DNA of 64,000 nucleotides from a virus. Its lineage: Duplodnaviria > Caudoviricetes. The notes below the pieces were generated by a model that did not search any database, was not told where the DNA came from, and was given only the letters and a program-made list of their open reading frames with translations. How positions within the stretch are numbered: the first letter of the stretch is position 1; every line of letters begins with the position of its first letter. Shown one piece after another: positions 19,689 through 64,000 of this stretch. The position numbers were made by a program, and so were the translations under genes. The stretch lies in IMG/VR virus record IMGVR_UViG_3300037297_000386; one strand, written 5' to 3'.

Positions 19689-20248
19689 AGTTCTTCATCA
19701 TTTTTAGATATTTCTTCTTCTTCGCCAGTTAATTTTTCATATGCTTCATATAATTTGCTAACCACAGAAATTTGTAGATTATCAATTATAGAAGTTCGTT
19801 TATGAAAATCGCTTTCAAACTCACCATCAATATCTATATCATCAAGAAACATACCATCTATTTTCTTAACTGCATTTGCAAGTGTAAGAATTCTCAAAGT
19901 AAATAAATCTGCCGCATCCGAGAAATTGTACATCATCTTGACTATCTGATTATTTTCCCGATTCGTTAGAGTACTCACTTCAAATTTTATATTATCTATT
20001 TCCACTTCTTCTGTTAATCTTCCTATAAATATCAGTTTTTCTAGTGTTTTTGAAACTGGCTTTTTTGGAGGAAGAGGGAACCCTATTTCGGTTTTTTGTG
20101 GTTGTACAGGTGCTTCAAATTGCGCCATGCGTTCATCAATAGACGAAACAGATGGTTGTGTTGCATCATCAACAACATACGTATGTGGTTTAGTCTGTCT
20201 CGGCTCTTCTCTTGTCGTATTCATATCTTGATGTCTAAGTGTAGCCAT
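19676..20248 (-). CDS. Tail assembly chaperone G (190 aa)
   Basis: Between tube and tape measure, AAGGAG SD, acidic helical C-terminus (LQISVVSKLYEAYEKL). Confidence 0.75.
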   Translation of the reverse strand: MATLRHQDMNTTREEPRQTKPHTYVVDDATQPSVSSIDERMAQFEAPVQPQKTEIGFPLPPKKPVSKTLEKLIFIGRLTEEVEIDNIKFEVSTLTNRENNQIVKMMYNFSDAADLFTLRILTLANAVKKIDGMFLDDIDIDGEFESDFHKRTSIIDNLQISVVSKLYEAYEKLTGEEEEISKNDEELKNL

Positions 20249-20396
20249 GAACTTTCTCCTTTATAAAATTATTTTTCAATAATCCATTTTTATTATTTAC
20301 TATTTTTTATTCAAATATTTTTTTGTTTTCACATAATAAGTGATGCCATTATAGAATTTTGACAATTTTCTTTTTAAAGATATCTATAAAATTAAT

Positions 20397-20427
20397 ACAC
20401 AACGCCTGTGTTGTGACAGGCGCGTGT
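20397..20427 (-). terminator. Stem-loop downstream of the tail tube gene, possible terminator or processing site
   Basis: CGCCTGT/ACAGGCG 7-bp stem (20403-20422) extended by ACAC/GTGT. The U-tract is poor. Confidence 0.35.
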
Positions 20428-20498
20428 TTTGTGTTAATGTACCAATGGATAAAATCAAACGGAGGGAGCTTACTCATTTTGAACTTTATATAGAATTA

Positions 20499-21152
20499 CT
20501 ATGTCGATGGGTATTCAACAGCTTCTTCGCCTTCGAATAGAGAATTAACCAATCCTGCAGCATCAAGAGAGCCACGGCGATTTCCATAATTAACATCAGC
20601 CTCTATGCCGGCATTATCAGTCTGCCGTTCAACTGGACGCAATGAGCCATCTCGCCCGATTTGTACTAGATAAGCAGTTTCACACCATATAGTTGCAGAT
20701 TCAGTGATAATATAATTGTCAGCAGCATATGGCGTTTCGTATCTAGTAAACCAACAATTTTTATAAGTCGATACAACCTTATTGCTGTCATCATCCGGCG
20801 CGTTTGGATCTGTGCCGCTGATATCAATAACATCTATGTCAAATGGGACCCTCTGGGCTGCAATAAATCTAAATCCTCGTGAAAATGATTCAGGTAAGCG
20901 TAATTGGTCAAATACAATTCGATTAGCAGTTAATTCATACGTTGTTGCCGCATTTGGAACAATTTCAATTATACCGTCTGTGCCAATTTCTGGTATACGG
21001 TATAACGGTCTATTTTGAGCGACAGACAAGTTTTGTAGAGCACCTACTGGCGAATTATAAACCTTTATAATAATTTGTGTTGAAAGGCCCGAATTAGTAC
21101 GATTTCCGGCATTTATGAAGGTTCCGGTGTTTGGGAAACCATTATCAGTCAT
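20499..21152 (-). CDS. Tail tube protein
   Basis: VGALQNLSVAQNR.L.RIPEIGTDGIIEIVPN...ELTANRIVFD and YKNCWFTRYETPY.ADNYIITESATIWCE. Downstream of the sheath. Likely ATG at 21152 overlapping the upstream TGA (ATGA). Confidence 0.85.
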   Translation of the reverse strand: MTDNGFPNTGTFINAGNRTNSGLSTQIIIKVYNSPVGALQNLSVAQNRPLYRIPEIGTDGIIEIVPNAATTYELTANRIVFDQLRLPESFSRGFRFIAAQRVPFDIDVIDISGTDPNAPDDDSNKVVSTYKNCWFTRYETPYAADNYIITESATIWCETAYLVQIGRDGSLRPVERQTDNAGIEADVNYGNRRGSLDAAGLVNSLFEGEEAVEYPST

Positions 21153-21973
21153 TTCTTGGTACACTCCTGTAATTTATATTTTTTATATCTTTCATATTTT
21201 CTATCTAAACGAGTTTGTTCTGTTGAACCAGCATACAGCCAATCTAGAATTGAATAAGTTTGTAGACCAGAATATTCTAAATTGTGTTTGTTTCCAAGGC
21301 ATTTAATTTTTGGATTACCAGTAATGTTTTCTTTTTCAATTATACTTTTAAGCCATTTTATTATATATTTAGATCCAGAAACTATGTGTATTCTTGGTTT
21401 ATTACTATGTTTGTGCCAACCTATAGAACCATCACCATCAATATATCCACGAATATAATGATTAATCATATTATCAGGAATATTTGGAGGTTGTAAAACA
21501 AATGTTTTGTTTGGTACAATGTTAAATTTTTCAGCAACATCTTTGACAATTTTATTAGACACAATTGACATAGTTACATATTTAAATGTTTTTATTCCTC
21601 TTAATCTAGATCTTTCCCATAACATTGTATCCCGATTTACAAATCTGCATAGTTTTTCTAAATGTCTATAATCAGAATATTGCAATTCAACATGGATCAT
21701 GTTTTTAGAAACATTGCCATCTGCCGCTATAAAACCTGCCCAATAACATGATTCTTTTGTAAATTTATTAAAAGAATCATGGTTTACAAAATGGCGCATA
21801 TTTTTTCTTATACCAAGTTTTCTTAATCTGTCTAACACGGTCCAACGGGAAATATTGAATTTTTCGCCTATTTCTTTCATAGTAAGATTATCTACCAAAT
21901 ATAATCTTACTATTTCTTTGTTATCAATATTGTATCCTTTGCAACCGACCTTATTAAGATTTCTTCTATCCAT
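21149..21973 (-). CDS. Free-standing LAGLIDADG homing endonuclease with N-terminal HTH
   Basis: Two motifs, YWAGFIAADG and YIRGYIDGDG, plus an HTH-like MKEIGEKFNISRWTV. Inserted between sheath and tube. Confidence 0.85.
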   Translation of the reverse strand: MDRRNLNKVGCKGYNIDNKEIVRLYLVDNLTMKEIGEKFNISRWTVLDRLRKLGIRKNMRHFVNHDSFNKFTKESCYWAGFIAADGNVSKNMIHVELQYSDYRHLEKLCRFVNRDTMLWERSRLRGIKTFKYVTMSIVSNKIVKDVAEKFNIVPNKTFVLQPPNIPDNMINHYIRGYIDGDGSIGWHKHSNKPRIHIVSGSKYIIKWLKSIIEKENITGNPKIKCLGNKHNLEYSGLQTYSILDWLYAGSTEQTRLDRKYERYKKYKLQECTKK

Positions 21974-56585: not shown

Positions 56586-56857
56586 AGTCCAGCCAACTTT
56601 ATTATTAAATAATGTCTTTTTAATTCATCGATACCAATACATAATTTACTGGCATCTTTGAAGTAAACAGATCCTTGTTGCATACTAAGTGCTTTTAATA
56701 TCCAATCTAAATCAATCATTTTAATATTATCATCAAAATCTGGTCTATTACCTATGTATTCGCATTCTATGACTTTTTTAGAAGCATCAAAGGACATACA
56801 TTCGAGACCATAAGCTTTTTTAAGTTGATATTTAGGTGTCATCTGTTGATTTTTCAT
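56582..56857 (-). CDS. Small paralog family member 1
   Basis: LKKAYGLECMSF ... VYFKDASK...DELKRHYLIIKLAGL. Confidence 0.7.
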   Translation of the reverse strand: MKNQQMTPKYQLKKAYGLECMSFDASKKVIECEYIGNRPDFDDNIKMIDLDWILKALSMQQGSVYFKDASKLCIGIDELKRHYLIIKLAGL

Positions 56858-59046
56858 TATATTATTTTGTAAAAATTAATTGGTTCTAATTTAGGTGTCT
56901 TATTTTTTGTAAAATGTGATTTTCTAGTTACCAAGTTCCACGAATCTACCAAACGGAATCCCTCTTCTTTTACTATATTATTTATATCATTGTGTATTTT
57001 CGTCATTTTTTTATTAGCAAAGTTTCCAGCATTAACAGCAAAAACGCCATTCTTTGCTAATGATCTCTTTATGTATTTTACAGTAATTCTCCAATAATTG
57101 TTAAGCCAATCTTCATAATCGGGGAATTTGTTATAACTTTGGGTATCTTCGTCAGTATAAATTTCATGATCATAATATGGAGGACTACTGAATGCAAAAT
57201 TTATATCGCAATCTGGTATAAAATTTTCCGATGGAACATTATATATATCAGCATTAATATTAAAATCATCGCACATTTTAATTAAACATTTATAAGTTTC
57301 AGTATTTGGGTCAGTTCCTATATATTTAGCTTTTACTCCGCTTGCATAAAATCCTAATAGTCTACCACCATATCCAGCACTATAGTCATAAACAATATCA
57401 CCGTCTTTGACCCAATGGGAATAAATTTCTTTGGCAACAGATGCTTTAAAAACAGATCCAGTTGCAGCCAACCCAGATGATTTTGCTCCTTGTGCTATCA
57501 TGGCTGGATGTATATTAAAATATTCAACACCATTTTTGTTTTTTATTCCGCTAATCCTATTTGTTATTATTTGTTCTAAGCTGTTTTTGTTAGTTATACA
57601 GTTATAAACGGATGGTTTTTTCTTAGTAGATAGTTTTAAAATGTTAGCAAAATAGCTTTTACATAATTTAGCACCAGCGTTATTATTGTTTGATAATTGT
57701 TTATTAGCTAGATCTAAACAGGAAGCGTTCAATAAGGCTTTCAAATCTTTTTTGATTATTTCTGTTTCCAATACTATATTAGAAAAATCATAATTAGAAA
57801 ATAATTCTAATAAATAATGTTTTATTTTATTTCTTGTTGTATTATTGGTCTTGCGTATAAATTCACTGGTTAATTTTTGTCCATTCCATACTACCACATC
57901 ATGAAAATGTTTAGGTTTATATATAATAATATCATGAACAGATTTTTTAATATTTCTATCAAATTTGACTATTTTTATATTAAAATTGTTGTTTTTGTAA
58001 TATTCTATTTTCTCGTTATCATCAGAATAAGAGTTAGTACGATTTTTACCCATTCCACCTGCTTCAATCCAAATTTTATGTTTGCCTGTACGAACCAAAA
58101 AATCACAAGACCAGTTTCTATTTTCACATATAGGAACCTCATATTTATAATCATCTATTATATATTTATTTTTAAATTCTAGAAGACAGTTTGCAACATT
58201 GGCTTCAAATTTAGACCTATAAATATTTCCATCATTTCCTACAACCGAAACGCTATTTCTCCACTGATTTTGTGCTGTATAATTAAATCCTAGAAATTTT
58301 AAAGCTTTTAAATAAGTCCCAAATCTGCCAGCATAAGTTTCTGCAGAAAATTTTCCATAATCTGCCATATCTTTATAATTAGGAACATGGCCTAATTCAT
58401 CTCTAAGGCGTATAATTTCATTTTTAAGATCTTCTTTTGGTATATTTTTAAGTGTTTGTGGTTCAAGTCCGCAAATTTCTAGCGTTTTATTCCAACTATC
58501 ACTATTAGATATTTTGTGACATGCTGTGACCCAAGAGCAAGTAGTAGAATATTCAGCAAAATCTGAAATAGTAGGAATTTTACCAAGTATTTTACTAACC
58601 CTTATTATATCTTTTATTATTTCTTCTTTAATATAGAGCATATTTAAATTATATGTATTATCCAAATTACACGAACCAACAGCAATACTAAATTTTCCAA
58701 AGGCTCTTTTATAAGCTCCAATAGGATACTTACCATGTTTACTAATTTCTGTCTGTGAAGGAACATGCCCTATATCTTTGTATACTCTTAATAATTCATC
58801 TAACAATTCTTGTTTAGAATATTTCATATCGGATCCAGATTTATTGGCATCTAGTTCGGCCTTTGTTTGTGCATTTTTTAGCTTACCAAATCTTTTTCTA
58901 TACAAGTGTACCCTTTTCGTTAAAAAACACCCATATTTTTTCATATCAGAACTACTGGGTGTTCTATTTAATTTAGTTGCGAGCTTTTTTAAAGCATCTA
59001 TTAATTGTTTATCAGTAATGGTTTTTGGATTAAAACTTTTTGTCAT
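56857..59046 (-). CDS. Fusion: four homing-endonuclease-associated repeats + PD-(D/E)XK-like nuclease + amino-DNA methyltransferase (729 aa)
   Basis: Four ~55-aa repeats (EL..L...G..P......G.......FG). Nuclease-like YRSKFEA.VA...YEV...CDFL...WIE. MTase motif I (YDYSAGYGGRL) and motif IV (FSSPPYY). Confidence 0.75.
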   Translation of the reverse strand: MTKSFNPKTITDKQLIDALKKLATKLNRTPSSSDMKKYGCFLTKRVHLYRKRFGKLKNAQTKAELDANKSGSDMKYSKQELLDELLRVYKDIGHVPSQTEISKHGKYPIGAYKRAFGKFSIAVGSCNLDNTYNLNMLYIKEEIIKDIIRVSKILGKIPTISDFAEYSTTCSWVTACHKISNSDSWNKTLEICGLEPQTLKNIPKEDLKNEIIRLRDELGHVPNYKDMADYGKFSAETYAGRFGTYLKALKFLGFNYTAQNQWRNSVSVVGNDGNIYRSKFEANVANCLLEFKNKYIIDDYKYEVPICENRNWSCDFLVRTGKHKIWIEAGGMGKNRTNSYSDDNEKIEYYKNNNFNIKIVKFDRNIKKSVHDIIIYKPKHFHDVVVWNGQKLTSEFIRKTNNTTRNKIKHYLLELFSNYDFSNIVLETEIIKKDLKALLNASCLDLANKQLSNNNNAGAKLCKSYFANILKLSTKKKPSVYNCITNKNSLEQIITNRISGIKNKNGVEYFNIHPAMIAQGAKSSGLAATGSVFKASVAKEIYSHWVKDGDIVYDYSAGYGGRLLGFYASGVKAKYIGTDPNTETYKCLIKMCDDFNINADIYNVPSENFIPDCDINFAFSSPPYYDHEIYTDEDTQSYNKFPDYEDWLNNYWRITVKYIKRSLAKNGVFAVNAGNFANKKMTKIHNDINNIVKEEGFRLVDSWNLVTRKSHFTKNKTPKLEPINFYKII

Positions 59047-59153: not shown

Positions 59154-59181
59154 AAAAAAAGAGGGCCCTTTTTGGGCCCTC
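59154..59181 (-). terminator. Intrinsic terminator after the major capsid gene
   Basis: Minus strand GAGGGCCC-AAAAA-GGGCCCTC-TTTTTTT: 8-bp perfect stem plus U7. Confidence 0.9.
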
Positions 59182-59221: not shown

Positions 59222-59758
59222 TTAACCAACGGCTACATCTTTACGACCAACTGATACACCGCGTGGATTTACAATCCCGATACCAATGATCTCGTTGACT
59301 ACCCAGCCTAATTTCAGCTGCTTCGGCTCGTCGGCTGGTAGAACTTCGATGTCTTGACGAACTGGCATTACACCAACAAATTCTGGATCAGCTACACCGA
59401 AAACAGTACCAGTTGGAACAACCTTACTAACGATAAGGTCGGCACCCCATAGATGTGCGAAAAGACCAGTCTGAAGAATTTCGCGCTGAGTGACCATATC
59501 TAGCTCACCGCCAGTTCCTGCAGACTGTCCACCACCGGAACCCCAGTTTAGAATATCATTAAATTCAACAATATTCATTAGGAACTTGGTTGTAACAAGG
59601 TCCCATCGATCTACCTGAACTTTGATTTCTGAAAGATCACGCTTTAGTAACCCAGCATCAGCAATATCCTGAGCGGTATTTTCGCCACCAAGATTTGAGT
59701 CACCAGCATAATCCAAAGCTGAGAAAATGTTAGCATCTTCTTGTGCTTGAATTTCTTG
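59222..59758 (-). CDS. Major capsid protein, exon 3 (178 aa + stop)
   Basis: QEIQAQEDANIF...LWGADLIVSKVVP.G..FG.ADPEFVG.MPVRQDIEV...LGWVV.E.IGIGIVNPRGV, an HK97-fold-type C-terminus. Begins right after intron-terminal AACAAATTG. Confidence 0.85.
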   Translation of the reverse strand, partial: QEIQAQEDANIFSALDYAGDSNLGGENTAQDIADAGLLKRDLSEIKVQVDRWDLVTTKFLMNIVEFNDILNWGSGGGQSAGTGGELDMVTQREILQTGLFAHLWGADLIVSKVVPTGTVFGVADPEFVGVMPVRQDIEVLPADEPKQLKLGWVVNEIIGIGIVNPRGVSVGRKDVAVG

Positions 59759-60935
59759 CAATTTGTTAATAGTTTTTATAAACTTACCAAATCATTTCTG
59801 TTTGGTTCTACACCTTTCGGTATAGTTCAGACTGTATCATCATCTTCTTTAGAAGAGCTTGGCATATCAGTCGTTGAGAATTGGAGTAATTTATATTTCA
59901 TACAATCTATAACATATGGTTTTATAAGTTTTGTAAGCTTAATGCCATTTTTTTTATTAAATGATAAATAATAATATTTTTTATTCCTATTATTATATTC
60001 ACATACTTTAGAACTTATATTAAAATTTACATATATGGCGTTTTGTAACCTATAGTTTTCTTCTTTTGTGAATCCCTCTGTAGATAATTTCATATCATAC
60101 TTTCTGGTATGTCCATCATCCATATACCAAATTGCCATCGCATAGGCCGAAAGCATATTTGATATATTCTTTTTTATAACCTTTTTTGTATTATCATAAA
60201 ATAATTTATGTAAATAATTTAATTCATGATGACAGATAGTAGTTAAATTGTATGTGACAGAATTCCTTGAATTCTGTTGTACATTCTGTCGTATCTTGTT
60301 CACAAAATTATTAAGCACCTGTTTTTTATAATGCAAGTATGGTAATTGTTTTTTACAATGATTAACAACAAATCTTTTTGTCTTACCATTATCTATATGT
60401 CCATCACCAAGCAAAGAACCAATTATAAACTCTTTCTGTTTTCGTGTGAATGGAATTTTGCGTAAATGATAATATTTTCTTTCTACACTTCTTATCGGTT
60501 TTATTCCATATTCTCTAAACCATCTATAAATTGTTCTTTCTCCGACTCCATAATATTCTGCTAAAACCTTTATTCCTTTGTGTGTAGTTTCATATGCATG
60601 TATCAATTCGCTCTTACAAGGTATTTTCCTTTTGCACACATATCCTCTTGATTCTATACCAAATTTTTTGAACCACTTTCTAACAGTTTTAACGCTCACT
60701 CCATAATAATCACCAATTTGTTGCATTGTTTTCATCTGATTATTGTACAAATCACACAGATTTTCTTTTGTAGGCACTTTGGATTACTCCTTTTCTGCTG
60801 ATTGCCCGTATCATTTAATTATTTTTAACTTAGTTTGATTGTAAATTATATTTCAATATAAATTATTTATGACTAAGTATAATTAACATTCGGGGTTTCC
60901 AGCATATAGCCAAGTTTAGAGCCCGCCGGAAATTA
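59759..60935 (-). ncRNA. Group I self-splicing intron B (1177 nt) in the capsid gene, carrying a LAGLIDADG ORF
   Basis: P1 GCCCGU|...GCGGGC with a U.G pair at the splice site; P AUGCUGGAAA; Q AAUCAGCAG; P3 CUUGGC/GCCAAG; R UCAACGACUG; S GAUACAGUC; P9 GAAA tetraloop; terminal G at 59759. Confidence 0.9.
59827..60777 (-). CDS. Intron-encoded LAGLIDADG endonuclease with two N-terminal HTH repeats
   Basis: FIIGSLLGDG and AIWYMDDG. GTG start with an AAGGAG SD just after Q. Its 3' end overlaps P7/P8/S. Confidence 0.85.
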   Translation of the reverse strand: MPTKENLCDLYNNQMKTMQQIGDYYGVSVKTVRKWFKKFGIESRGYVCKRKIPCKSELIHAYETTHKGIKVLAEYYGVGERTIYRWFREYGIKPIRSVERKYYHLRKIPFTRKQKEFIIGSLLGDGHIDNGKTKRFVVNHCKKQLPYLHYKKQVLNNFVNKIRQNVQQNSRNSVTYNLTTICHHELNYLHKLFYDNTKKVIKKNISNMLSAYAMAIWYMDDGHTRKYDMKLSTEGFTKEENYRLQNAIYVNFNISSKVCEYNNRNKKYYYLSFNKKNGIKLTKLIKPYVIDCMKYKLLQFSTTDMPSSSKEDDDTV

Positions 60936-61144
60936 ACGGGCTTTTTGCTGAGCACGGTCAATTACATTAAATCGACGCCTTTTAACTTCAGCAATACGAA
61001 CGGTCGGGTTAGAAACAACCTCGAATTCTGGAACACTTACACGATCTGAAAATGCACGTGATTCAGGAGCAGAACCGTTACTAGAAATAACAACGGCTGC
61101 CACATCGATATCTCTATCGTAGACAGGTAAAGCACCTTGTGGTA
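60936..61144 (-). CDS. Major capsid protein, exon 2 (209 nt; not in the ORF track)
   Basis: TA CCA CAA GGT... reads (L)PQGALPVYDRDIDVAAVVISSNGSAPESRAFSDRVSVPEFEVVSNPTVRIAEVKRRRFNVIDRAQQKAR, in phase with both neighbouring exons. Confidence 0.9.
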
Positions 61145-62191
61145 CAATTTGTTACTCATCGTTAAGATGGGCCGAATCATCTCTGTTCGGCTCTACATAT
61201 CTCTATGTAGTTCAGACTATATCATCACCTCTTTTTGAGGGTTTAGCATTTAGTCGTTGAGGGACGGCAAAATTTTATACATAAAATCTTTCAGTATATA
61301 TTGCCTAACCAAGTTAGATAACAATTGTGAGTTTCTCTTGTTGATTGATATATAATAGTATTCTTTCTGGTTTCTATTATATTTTGCAATTTTAGATCTC
61401 ACATTAAATTTTGATTTCAGCATACTCTGTAAAATCAACTGTTCTTTGTACGAGAAACTATCAGTCGAAAGCCTTATGTTACACCTATTGTTTAGTGTTC
61501 CGTCATCCATTATCCAATATGCTAAAGATCTTTCAGTTACATAATTGGATAGCTCTTGACGAATTACTTTTTTGTTATTTTCATAAAACAAGTGTCTAAA
61601 GAATCTGAAATCATTATGTACTACTGTGACAAAAGAATACATTACAGAATTTTTTCTTTTATCTTCCTTCTTGTTTATAGAATTAACTAAATTCCCAAGA
61701 ATTGCCTTCTTGTGTAACACCAATGATTTTTGTTTTTCGCAATGTCCTATTTGAAGCCTACAACTTTTGTTCTTTCTTCCATGTTCACCAACAAATCCAT
61801 CGCCAAGAAGAGTTCCAACAACCATCTCTTTTTGCTCTTTTGTAAGTGGGACTTTCTTAATTAGTTCATATTTTCTTTGTTTCGGATTAGCATCAATATT
61901 TAGAATATAGAACCATCGATTAATAGTCTTTCGACTAACCTGATATATCTCTGCTATTTCGTAAGTTGTAAGTCTTCTATCAACATAAAGTTTTATCAAC
62001 TCGTTTCTGCTTGGTCTCTTCATTCTACCTTCCCTGCTGATTGTCTGCGTATCAAAAGTTTTAACTTAGGTACTGTTTTAGATTATCTTCTGTGAGTAAT
62101 CTGTATTTTCCTAAGTATTTCGATCTTCCAGACTTCCCAGCATACAGCCAAATTTTTCCTAAAATATTGCTATTTTAGGCCGCTACCGTTA
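61145..62191 (-). ncRNA. Group I self-splicing intron A (1047 nt) in the capsid gene, carrying a LAGLIDADG ORF
   Basis: P1 CCGU|UA-ACGG-UAGCGG; P10 GGUA pairs with exon UACC; P2 with GCAA loop; P AUGCUGGGAA; Q AAUCAGCAG; R UCAACGACUA; S GAUAUAGUC; P9 GAGA loop; terminal G at 61145. Confidence 0.9.
61250..62023 (-). CDS. Intron-encoded LAGLIDADG endonuclease with N-terminal HTH
   Basis: MVVGTLLGDG and AYWIMDDG. Starts just after Q and its stop codon lies in the R element. Confidence 0.85.
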   Translation of the reverse strand: MKRPSRNELIKLYVDRRLTTYEIAEIYQVSRKTINRWFYILNIDANPKQRKYELIKKVPLTKEQKEMVVGTLLGDGFVGEHGRKNKSCRLQIGHCEKQKSLVLHKKAILGNLVNSINKKEDKRKNSVMYSFVTVVHNDFRFFRHLFYENNKKVIRQELSNYVTERSLAYWIMDDGTLNNRCNIRLSTDSFSYKEQLILQSMLKSKFNVRSKIAKYNRNQKEYYYISINKRNSQLLSNLVRQYILKDFMYKILPSLND

Positions 62192-62471
62192 ACGGATCCA
62201 CAACTAGAACTCTACGTCCAACGCCTTGATAATCTAAGTTTCTACGAATTGGATTAGCCATAGCTTGGCCTAATGCAACCTTACCTTCCGTGGTCATTAG
62301 AGCCCTACGAATTAGCTCATCTTTTTGCTCTTCTGTAAAAGAAGGCTGGCCAGCAAGACCCTGACTGGCCGATTGGTTATTCTGAATAATACTAGCATAC
62401 TTTACGATTTGTGCTAATGCATCGCGATCGCTAGCAGCATTCAGCTCACCATGGGTATTAAACAATGACAT
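62192..62471 (-). CDS. Major capsid protein, exon 1 (280 nt)
   Basis: AGGAGG SD. MSLFNTHGELNA...GKVALGQAMANPIRRNLDYQGVGRRVLVVDP. The in-frame stop at 62175 lies inside intron A. Confidence 0.9.
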
Positions 62472-62509
62472 GATTTTATGTCCTCCTGATATTATTTTTT
62501 TGCTATAAT

Positions 62510-63328
62510 TTATACAGCATTAATCTTTTCAAAGTCGGTATTACCGACAGGTTCACGAATTTGAAAATCGTTACACAATTTGTATCTCATGCTTTCTATA
62601 ACATAGAATCTTATTATATCTTGCATCTTTTTGGTTTCCTTAGAACTCAACCAAAGTCTATGAGTATTTTTATATGATACTATATTAGCATTTAAACTAA
62701 AATTATTCTTAAGCATCTTCATTAATTTAACATGTTCATCTCGTGTAAAACAATCTGTACACATGTAGGTGCTTTTATTTCTTAAAGAATATGTTCCATC
62801 CTCCATGAACCAAACAGCTAACGATATTTTTTCTGTAAATATATGGTCTATAGAATCTGGCACAATTTTCTTTCCGCTAGCATTATAAAAAGTTTTTCTA
62901 AAATAGTTTAATTCAGGAACAGATAAGGTGCTAAAATTATAAAATACATAACTTTTGTCATATTTTTTATTATAAGCGACTTGTTTGCTAATATTAGATC
63001 CCAAATCATCAAATATATCTTTAATCCAATGTATATAATCTTTCTGCTTTATAGAATGACTTGTCTTATAACTAGAAGTTCTATTATTACATTTTGTTAT
63101 GTGCCCGTCGCCAAGTAAAGACCCGATTAAAAAATTTCTTTGATAATCATTTAATTGTCTGTTTTCAACTATATCTCTTTTTTTCTGAAATCTGGTTTTT
63201 ATATCAAATTTCTTGAGTGCCTTACACACCGTACTTCTATGAACGCCCATTTCTTTAGCTATTTCATATGTACTTTTCAATTGGTCAACATATAGCTTTT
63301 GTATAAATTCTTTATTAATTTTTTCCAT
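62510..63328 (-). CDS. Free-standing LAGLIDADG endonuclease with N-terminal HTH
   Basis: FLIGSLLGDG, AVWFMEDG, YVIESMRYKL. Same subfamily as the intron ORFs. Confidence 0.85.
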   Translation of the reverse strand: MEKINKEFIQKLYVDQLKSTYEIAKEMGVHRSTVCKALKKFDIKTRFQKKRDIVENRQLNDYQRNFLIGSLLGDGHITKCNNRTSSYKTSHSIKQKDYIHWIKDIFDDLGSNISKQVAYNKKYDKSYVFYNFSTLSVPELNYFRKTFYNASGKKIVPDSIDHIFTEKISLAVWFMEDGTYSLRNKSTYMCTDCFTRDEHVKLMKMLKNNFSLNANIVSYKNTHRLWLSSKETKKMQDIIRFYVIESMRYKLCNDFQIREPVGNTDFEKINAV

Positions 63329-63345: not shown

Positions 63346-64000
63346 TTAATTTAAAACAGACAATTTATATCTCATGCTTTCTATAATATAAGGCATTACT
63401 ATTTCTGATATTTCTTTTGATTCTTTTACATTAAAATATAAATTATATCGGCTATCTTTTATTCTAGATATTTTTGTATTAATTCCAAGTTTCGCTTTTA
63501 TCATAGATCTTAAAATTTCATGATCTTCTAAAGAAAAACAATTAGTACATAATATTATTTTGTTGGCTGCCTTTTTAAATGTACCGTCATCCATCAACCA
63601 TATAGCCATAGAAAAATCATCTAAATATTTCTCTATCTCTGGATTTATGTATTTTATATTATCTTTATAAAATAAATTTCTAAAATGCATGAATTCTGGA
63701 TGAGAATAAGATTTAAAACCACATGTAAAATGTGTTTTATTTTCTAAGACGGCTTTATTAAATGTTATATCACCAACATAACCAGACAATATTTCTCTTT
63801 TCCACTTAACATATTCAAATTGTTTTGTACTATGTCTAACTTCAAATCTTGCTGCTTTATTACTATTATTTAATGATATATGCCCGTCTCCAAGCAATGA
63901 GCCTACAATAAACTTTTTAATATCGTTAGTGAAACAAGTTTTAAATCTTTCTAAACATAATTTTGTATAGCCTGGAGCAATTCTTGATATATTATGTTTA
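63346..64000 (-). CDS. LAGLIDADG endonuclease, 5'-truncated by the window edge
   Basis: The frame is open to base 64000 (...FIVGSLLGDG...AIWLMDDG...YIIESMRYKL). Confidence 0.85.
   Translation of the reverse strand, partial: KHNISRIAPGYTKLCLERFKTCFTNDIKKFIVGSLLGDGHISLNNSNKAARFEVRHSTKQFEYVKWKREILSGYVGDITFNKAVLENKTHFTCGFKSYSHPEFMHFRNLFYKDNIKYINPEIEKYLDDFSMAIWLMDDGTFKKAANKIILCTNCFSLEDHEILRSMIKAKLGINTKISRIKDSRYNLYFNVKESKEISEIVMPYIIESMRYKLSVLN

Follow-up and report, generated by a model that had tools for sequence, protein, structure and literature searches.

Phage structural genes that hold several introns are not without precedent, since Landthaler and Shub reportedly described three group I introns in orf142 of Staphylococcus phage Twort in 1999. 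This highly expressed late gene of a large phage, which needs several splicing events, is the tail tube gene, and its three introns are related to each other (PMC11878797). Introns have also been found in the major capsid subunit genes of two tailed phages, lactococcal phage Tuc2009 and mycobacteriophage LittleE, where splicing takes place during late expression (PMC3706429). Jumbo phages such as AR9, the MarsHill-like phages and the Jug phages are rich in introns and endonucleases (10.1101/2020.12.14.422802; PMC12880540), an intron endonuclease of PhiPA3 acts in the competition between phages (PMC11620839), and LAGLIDADG genes within phage introns are rare yet known (PMC11878797, PMC12880540). 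Here we describe the major capsid gene in a 64,000-nt window of IMG/VR virus record IMGVR_UViG_3300037297_000386 (the window being the whole stretch of DNA analysed), where the gene is split by two inserts that are very probably group I introns from a single family. Taken in reverse orientation, the window corresponds to bases 87692-151691 of a 162,416-base virus contig with an estimated completeness of about 40%, and its source is an uncultured jumbo phage, a relative of Bacillus phage G. The locus adds the capsid gene of a G-like jumbo phage to the short list of intron-holding phage structural genes.

The locus resembles Twort orf142 in that a late structural gene of a large phage holds more than one group I intron and the introns are related, but the gene encodes the capsid and not the tail tube protein, and both introns carry LAGLIDADG genes. 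The likeness to LittleE extends to a U at the exon end, a G at the intron end and an open reading frame (ORF) resembling a LAGLIDADG endonuclease. However, Tuc2009 and LittleE have one intron each and the LittleE ORF lies on the opposite strand, whereas here two introns of the same family hold sense-strand ORFs in loop L6, in a jumbo phage, with seven invaded sites across its relatives. Numerous group I introns and homing endonucleases likewise sit in core genes of the jumbo phages AR9, the MarsHill-like and Jug phages and PhiPA3, and in the Jug phages splicing was checked with metatranscriptomes (PMC12880540). The host genes named in the sections of these reports at hand do not include the capsid gene; they are those for RNA polymerase, terL, nrdD, DNA polymerase, gyrase and prohead protease. 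HNH enzymes dominate in the Jug phages, with 505 HNH versus 17 LAGLIDADG endonucleases. The sequence-only reading from which this work started had set two LAGLIDADG-bearing introns in a structural gene apart from what was known of phage introns. The two introns and their ORFs are real, but the claim of novelty has to be toned down, given the precedents in Tuc2009 and LittleE (PMC3706429) and in Twort (PMC11878797).

The split capsid gene, its intronless relatives and its RNA

All features described below lie on the minus strand. Exon 1 (62192..62471; 280 nt) runs from the ATG at 62471, which follows a Shine-Dalgarno sequence, AGGAGG, at 62482-62487, to a final T that belongs to a split codon; exon 2 (60936..61144; 209 nt) encodes residues 94-163, and exon 3 (59222..59758; 537 nt) includes the stop codon. 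Joined in this order (62471-62192, 61144-60936, 59758-59222), they give 1026 nt and translate into 341 aa plus stop with no internal stop, which confirms the uninterrupted protein of the sequence-only reading. Junction 1 cuts the codon of Leu94 between its first and second positions (T|TA), and junction 2 falls between Arg163 and Gln164 (phase 0).

By sequence similarity, the product is an HK97-type (HK97-fold) major capsid protein of the phage G gp27 family. It is 53% identical to gp27 over 288 aa, with both junctions free of gaps: VVDP|LPQGALPVYD is the same in the two proteins across junction 1, and at junction 2 NVIDRAQQKAR|QEI in the window faces NVIDRAQQRAK|ADI in gp27. With exon 3 alone, the top match among GenBank phages is gp27, the major head protein of Bacillus phage G, and this exon also matches PDB 6wkk, 'Gp27 major capsid protein' (E 9e-41). 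The order and strand of the gene are as expected within a virion module. The long ORFs of the window are all on the minus strand, some of them encoding 1,000-2,100 residues, which is how a jumbo phage virion module would be expected to look; the G+C content is 28-39%.

A scan of IMG/VR returned 401 related capsid loci, 80 of which were kept for analysis. In 65 of these 80, the capsid gene is a single uninterrupted frame of ~1.0 kb corresponding to residues 1-341, with identities of up to 92%. In blastn alignments with the intronless genes, exon 1 matches nt 1-280, exon 2 nt 281-489 and exon 3 nt 490-1026, and exons 1 and 2 are intact, with 75-82% nucleotide identity to the eight closest of these genes. 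Intronless homologues align without gaps across both predicted junctions, at the protein as well as the nucleotide level. For intron 2 they fix the ends without any freedom and without recourse to splice rules, and the result still follows U|...G|; for intron 1 a TA repeat permits three placements, of which only the one chosen in the sequence-only reading gives U|...G|. A megablast search of the locus against GenBank phages found no match.

The entire locus was found in one DNA run, a wetland metagenome, and one wetland metatranscriptomic run, from a sample other than the DNA source, holds 30% of the locus's sampled words. A 258-nt RNA contig matches, with zero mismatches, positions 61138-60936 followed by 59758-59704, so that exactly 1177 nt are skipped at an unambiguous joint, and the DNA run holding the whole locus has no 59758/60936 joint. 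The predicted junction 2, GCCCGT|CAAGAAAT, is matched exactly by this contig, direct evidence at the RNA level for the removal of intron 2. Further RNA contigs match exon 3 as well as parts of exon 1 and of the intron 2 ORF. At junction 1 (predicted as GATCCGT|TACCACAA) the RNA contigs stop at 62236 and 61138, leaving the junction itself uncovered, and we infer the splicing of intron 1 from its sequence. A separate 176-nt RNA contig (X2 record 8) matches just the conserved P3-P4 stretch of intron 1 (62137-62172), with 3 mismatches and flanks that are unlike; it probably derives from a related intron of another phage in the same metatranscriptome.

Intron anatomy and covariation among relatives

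Intron 1 occupies 61145..62191 (1047 nt), within the Leu94 codon, and intron 2 occupies 59759..60935 (1177 nt), between Arg163 and Gln164, where it opens with an in-frame TAA. The internal guide of intron 1, GGTA-GCGG (62180..62187), is predicted to pair through GCGG with the exon 1 end CCGT (P1, with a U.G at the splice site) and through GGTA with the exon 2 start TACC (P10). In intron 2, GCGGGCT (60920-60926) would pair with AGCCCGT at the end of exon 2 (P1, again with U.G) and AATTTC (60929-60934) with GAAATT in exon 3 (P10), P10 thus having 6 bp as compared to 4 bp in intron 1. The 5' core of intron 1 (62032..62179) comprises the P2 hairpin, the 5' strand of P3, P4, P5, P5a-c, P4' and the 5' strand of P6, and its 3' core (61145..61263) comprises P6', P7, P3', P8, P7', P9, P9.1, P9.2 and the terminal G at 61145. 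An unconstrained fold of the ORF-deleted intron 1 yields P2, P4-P6, P7, P8, P9, P9.1 and P9.2; P3 is absent from it because it forms a pseudoknot with P7. Intron 2 has no P2, and its 3' core (59759..59893) contains P6a'/P6', P7 (GACTG/CAGTC), P3', P8, P9, P9.1, P9.2 and the terminal G at 59759.

Both introns contain the elements P (TATGCTGG), Q (AATCAGCAG), R (TCAACGACT) and S (AGTCTGAAC), the P9.1 loop CAGARATGA and the 3' end AACAAATTG, in each case with an exon ending in T and an intron ending in G. All of the shared elements listed in the sequence-only reading, including the loop CAGARAUGA and the end given in RNA form as AACAAAUUG, were found in the two introns, the compensatory P7 change that it pointed out (GACUA/UAGUC versus GACUG/CAGUC) is real, and the U|...G rule with P1 U.G pairs holds at both junctions. 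Throughout the 162-kb contig, the P/Q/R/S and P9.1 loop set occurs together in these two introns only, and a search for more copies of the family found none, exact Q, R and S co-occurring in the two introns alone. The 5' domains of the two are 59% identical and the 3' domains 70%, and by this comparison they are related, yet no recent copies of one another.

The capsid gene is also split in 11 of the 80 kept loci. After curation the set numbered 16 introns, counting the two of the window, at seven sites: Met70 (phase 2), Ile75 (phase 2), Arg76/Arg77 (between codons), Arg77/Asn78 (between codons), Pro93/Leu94 (phase 1; window intron 1), Arg163/Gln164 (between codons; window intron 2) and Ile166 (phase 2). 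Boundaries were set against intronless genes, those of the introns in loci L024 and L062 being read from sequence. One locus, L049, was left out of the set; its capsid gene is interrupted near residue 75, with ~4-7 residues missing relative to homologues and a 3' boundary that is not fixable. Another, L070, duplicates L066. The sites are slightly better conserved than the rest of the gene (0.80-0.85 versus a gene mean of 0.76 at the nucleotide level) and lie in the top 8-37% of 24-nt windows.

Every intron of the set is preceded by U, ends in G and has, near its 5' end, a guide that pairs with both exons; P1 spans 4-9 bp up to the last exon U, which faces a guide G. In 12 of the 16, P10 abuts P1, the adjoining guide bases pairing with the next exon. 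Contiguous P1+P10 averages 10.2 bp with the cognate exons, as compared to 4.0 +/- 2.2 bp with the exons of other sites, and the guide co-varies with the exon at the 7 sites. At the site of window intron 2, for example, L024 has the exon GAGAUU and the guide AAUCUC, a compensatory change relative to GAAAUU/AAUUUC; the P10 of the Met70 intron in the same locus is weak (2 bp). Four other phages have a homologous intron at the site of window intron 1, with the same guide.

Base pairs were counted with RNAalifold for the 5' and 3' domains and with scripts for P3, P6, the guides and P7. In the 3' domains RNAalifold recovered P7, P8, P9 and P9.1, where 18 of 25 pairs show double changes, and in the 5' domains P4, P5 and P5a, where 9 of 18 do. 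No variation is seen in P4 or in four of the five P7 pairs, whereas P5, P5a, P8, P9 and P9.1 are rich in double changes. P3 and P6 both bridge the ORF; P3 is held at 5 bp by six different sequence pairs, and P6 has 4/4 bp in all 16 introns through four variants (AGAA/UUCU in window intron 2, AGGA/UCCU in most). The P7 pattern, R = CA(A/G)(C/A)GACU and S = AGUC(U/C), consists of a G-C pair, a bulged base and the next pair, and this pair past the bulge is A-U in 10 introns, G-C in 6 and mismatched in none. The same bulged layout is that of the guanosine pocket of Tetrahymena (C262-G312 / A263 / G264-C311). Between P7 and P3' the window introns have no P7.1/P7.2, which argues against subgroup IA2, and in this they differ from the Twort ribozyme, which belongs to IA2. 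The S/P9 stretch of intron 1 matches unannotated gaps in Twort/K-like staphylococcal phages (92% identity over 39 nt) and in other phages known to have introns. The 5' domain of intron 1 gave no match by blastn against GenBank phages.

A further feature of the set is a TAA directly after the splice-site U in 11 of the 16 introns, which is an in-frame stop at the phase-0 sites; the Arg77 introns have AAA TAA. Such an early TAA may keep ribosomes out of the ribozyme. A second side observation concerns Staphylococcus phage SapYZU04 (56243-57687), where the S/P9 match lies just behind the tail sheath gene, in an unannotated 1.4-kb gap that separates a 123-aa 'capsid protein' ORF from the ORF following it. 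This gap looks like an unannotated intron of the Twort orf142 type in a tail tube gene.

Covariation in 16 related introns together with guide pairing supports the group I core proposed in the sequence-only reading, and we consider it very probable that both inserts are group I introns. Several points weigh against this picture, or against parts of it. At the gathering score (50 bits for RF00028, Intron_gpI), Rfam matched no family in the whole window. At a relaxed threshold there was a partial 18.6-bit RF00028 match in intron 2 (59810-59856), and one relative, L016, aligned with this family over R-P3'-P8-S-P9 at 32.9 bits (E 5e-5); the scores are most likely below threshold because an L6 ORF of 0.8-0.95 kb separates the halves of the core. 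The 59758/60936 joint was seen in contigs assembled from another sample, and strictly speaking it could stem from an intronless DNA variant with identical exons carried over into that library. Intron 1 has a P1 of just 4 bp besides its 4-bp P10. Finally, self-splicing, its GTP dependence and the activity of the endonucleases are predicted features.

It is conceivable, although improbable, that only intron 2 still splices and that intron 1 has decayed, leaving a broken capsid gene in a defective or dying lineage. The short P1 and P10 of intron 1 (4 + 4 bp) would fit this, as would the finding that no RNA contig bridges 62192/61144. However, the latter is a gap in sparse contigs and no negative result, and intron 1 retains every core element, its terminal G and the P7 pocket with the bulge among them, and its 257-aa endonuclease frame is intact. 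Moreover, exons 1 and 2 have stayed intact relative to their closest intronless homologues, and the four other phages with an intron at this site have kept the same guide sequence.

Still less likely is that the inserts are free-standing endonuclease genes and that the capsid protein is made as three separately translated pieces which assemble without splicing. The split nrdA of phage Aeh1 is said to be a precedent for gene pieces of this kind, two free-standing LAGLIDADG genes adjoin the capsid gene, and exon 2 overlaps a 56-aa GTG ORF. This GTG ORF is all that represents exon 2 in the mechanical ORF list, and its GTG is internal, 41 nt into the exon; the frame of exon 3 has no ATG or GTG start, its sole start being a TTG just within intron 2, and a search of the ten bases preceding this TTG found no purine-rich ribosome-binding sequence. 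Junction 1, furthermore, falls inside a codon, the ORF flanks form a covarying ribozyme core, and the RNA contig shows the exact join of exon 2 to exon 3. We give almost no credence to a group II intron or an intein, even if inteins and, more rarely, group II introns can hold LAGLIDADG genes as well (PMC3706429, citing Toor and Zimmerly 2002). An intein is rejected by host-frame stops (intron 2 opens with TAA, and in intron 1 the stop follows five codons) and by ORFs with starts of their own, and a group II intron by ends that are not GUGYG...AY, a core P/Q/R/S of group I type, and the finding of no reverse transcriptase and no Rfam group II family.

Taking both inserts as group I introns, the capsid gene would be transcribed as one precursor in which each intron folds into a ribozyme whose guide pairs with both exons, holding the last bases of the upstream one, with the U.G where the cut is made, and the first bases of the downstream one. 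The 5' splice site would be attacked by an external guanosine, after which the intron's terminal G would dock in the P7 pocket, and the exons would be ligated into the 1026-nt frame for the 341-aa HK97-type protein. These steps would proceed without the help of proteins. As late infection calls for capsid protein in very large quantity, two obligatory splicing events imply that the ribozymes would be fast and efficient. On a practical matter, automatic annotation of such phages would be expected to give a truncated or missing capsid gene; exon 2 has no start codon at its 5' end and only the internal GTG.

LAGLIDADG genes and the capsid gene as an intron hot spot

The ORF of intron 1 (61250..62023; 257 aa) encodes a double-motif LAGLIDADG_2 protein of the I-SceI type with an N-terminal helix-turn-helix (HTH), lies in L6 and overlaps P6' and the 5' strand of P7 with its 3' end. 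That of intron 2 (59827..60777; 316 aa) begins with GTG, encodes a LAGLIDADG_2 protein with two N-terminal HTH motifs and runs through P6', P7 and P3' into P8 and beyond. Both match PF03161, LAGLIDADG_2 (E 1e-36 and 5e-38; 126-131 bits versus a cut-off of 25), in line with the assignment in the sequence-only reading. Each chain has two motifs, LLGDG and MDDG (IMDDG in the intron 1 ORF), so that the enzymes should act as monomers. Both intron ORFs are related to phrog_11023 and to I-SceI (E 1e-16); for that of intron 1, the match to I-SceI (PDB 1r7m) covers residues 39-252 with E 2e-16. I-SceI, from the group I intron of the yeast mitochondrial LSU rRNA, is likewise a single-chain, two-motif, intron-encoded enzyme; the phage proteins differ from it by the additional one or two N-terminal HTH motifs and by predicted targets in a capsid gene. 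Both intron ORFs begin shortly past P6 and enter the 3' core, ending within R in intron 1 and within S in intron 2, and their ribosome-binding sites are located in P6/P6a. Folding and translation should therefore compete with each other.

Among GenBank phages, relatives of the intron 1 ORF were found in nine records only. Across the capsid loci, endonuclease identity within a site is 60-63% at Pro93, 60% at Arg163, 72% at Arg77 and 61-65% at Arg76/Ile75, as compared to ~30-40% between sites, and this grouping by insertion site fits site-specific homing. The monomeric I-SceI-like endonuclease from L6 would presumably cut intronless capsid alleles of co-infecting relatives, and repair of the cut allele would copy the intron in; the grouping by site and the commonness of intronless alleles support this indirectly.

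The capsid gene is an intron hot spot in the related phages, with introns at seven sites in 11 of the 80 loci. One locus, L024 (2300-6000), has three introns in its capsid gene, at Met70, Pro93/Leu94 and Arg163/Gln164. Its second and third introns are 96% identical in their 5' domains and 62% identical in their 3' domains, which suggests recombination between introns of one gene. In L062 (1097-3499), two capsid-gene introns surround a 16-nt micro-exon, GGCGAATCCCATCCGT (2308-2323), that pairs with the guides of both flanking introns. We found no earlier description of a hot spot in this capsid family, be it the seven sites, the arrangements in L024 and L062 or the recombination between introns. 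It is possible, although we put this forward only tentatively, that a single intron family has spread within G-like capsid genes by changing its guide and its LAGLIDADG partner, to at least seven sites, with as many as three introns in a gene and exons down to 16 nt, and that, taken with the free-standing LAGLIDADG genes next to it, the capsid locus would be a battleground on which co-infecting relatives cut each other's capsid gene, in the way shown for the intron endonuclease of PhiPA3, and not merely the seat of passive parasitism. The related loci constitute a natural series, in which one ribozyme family occupies seven sites with matching guides and with endonuclease lineages of their own. 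This series could be used to study how group I introns change their target sites and to ask whether endonucleases that target a structural gene decide the outcome of mixed infections.

Neighbouring genes and further observations

Upstream of the capsid gene there are two more LAGLIDADG_2 genes. One (62510..63328; 272 aa) ends 38 nt before the capsid ATG, and the other (63346..64000) passes the window edge to contig base 87558, with a frame of 262 aa in the contig. A search of the 162-kb contig for the exact Q, R and S motifs found no intron core around them, and we therefore regard them as free-standing. They fill the 1703-nt spacer between an upstream 221-aa gene and the capsid gene, a spacer that measures ~70-280 nt in most relatives. 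In total, four LAGLIDADG genes are found within 4.9 kb, with a mutual identity of just 29-36%; phrog_11023 is matched by the intron 2 ORF and by one of the free-standing ORFs. We considered the 221-aa gene as a candidate decoration gene and dropped this idea, as its sequence is not similar to that of gp26, the decoration protein of phage G.

In a distant relative, an uncultured 485-kb phage (LR745208.1), a LAGLIDADG gene akin to the intron 1 ORF (394469-395131) is located ~1.3 kb downstream of the capsid gene. Phage G itself has an unsplit capsid gene, and its endolysin gene gp23 is annotated as a two-piece join (record 19865-21534), which gives this phage one annotated split gene or more.

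Downstream of the window's capsid gene, a GC-rich hairpin followed by a T run (59154..59181), read from the sequence, is a likely intrinsic terminator. Directly after it comes a 729-aa ORF (56857-59046, minus strand) with four HNH_repeat units (PF18780, 'homing endonuclease associated'), whose C-terminal part has an SPPY motif and a weak match to phrog_498, a phage DNA methyltransferase family (E 4e-6). This ORF may represent a further gene of mobile or nuclease-linked type next to that of the capsid.

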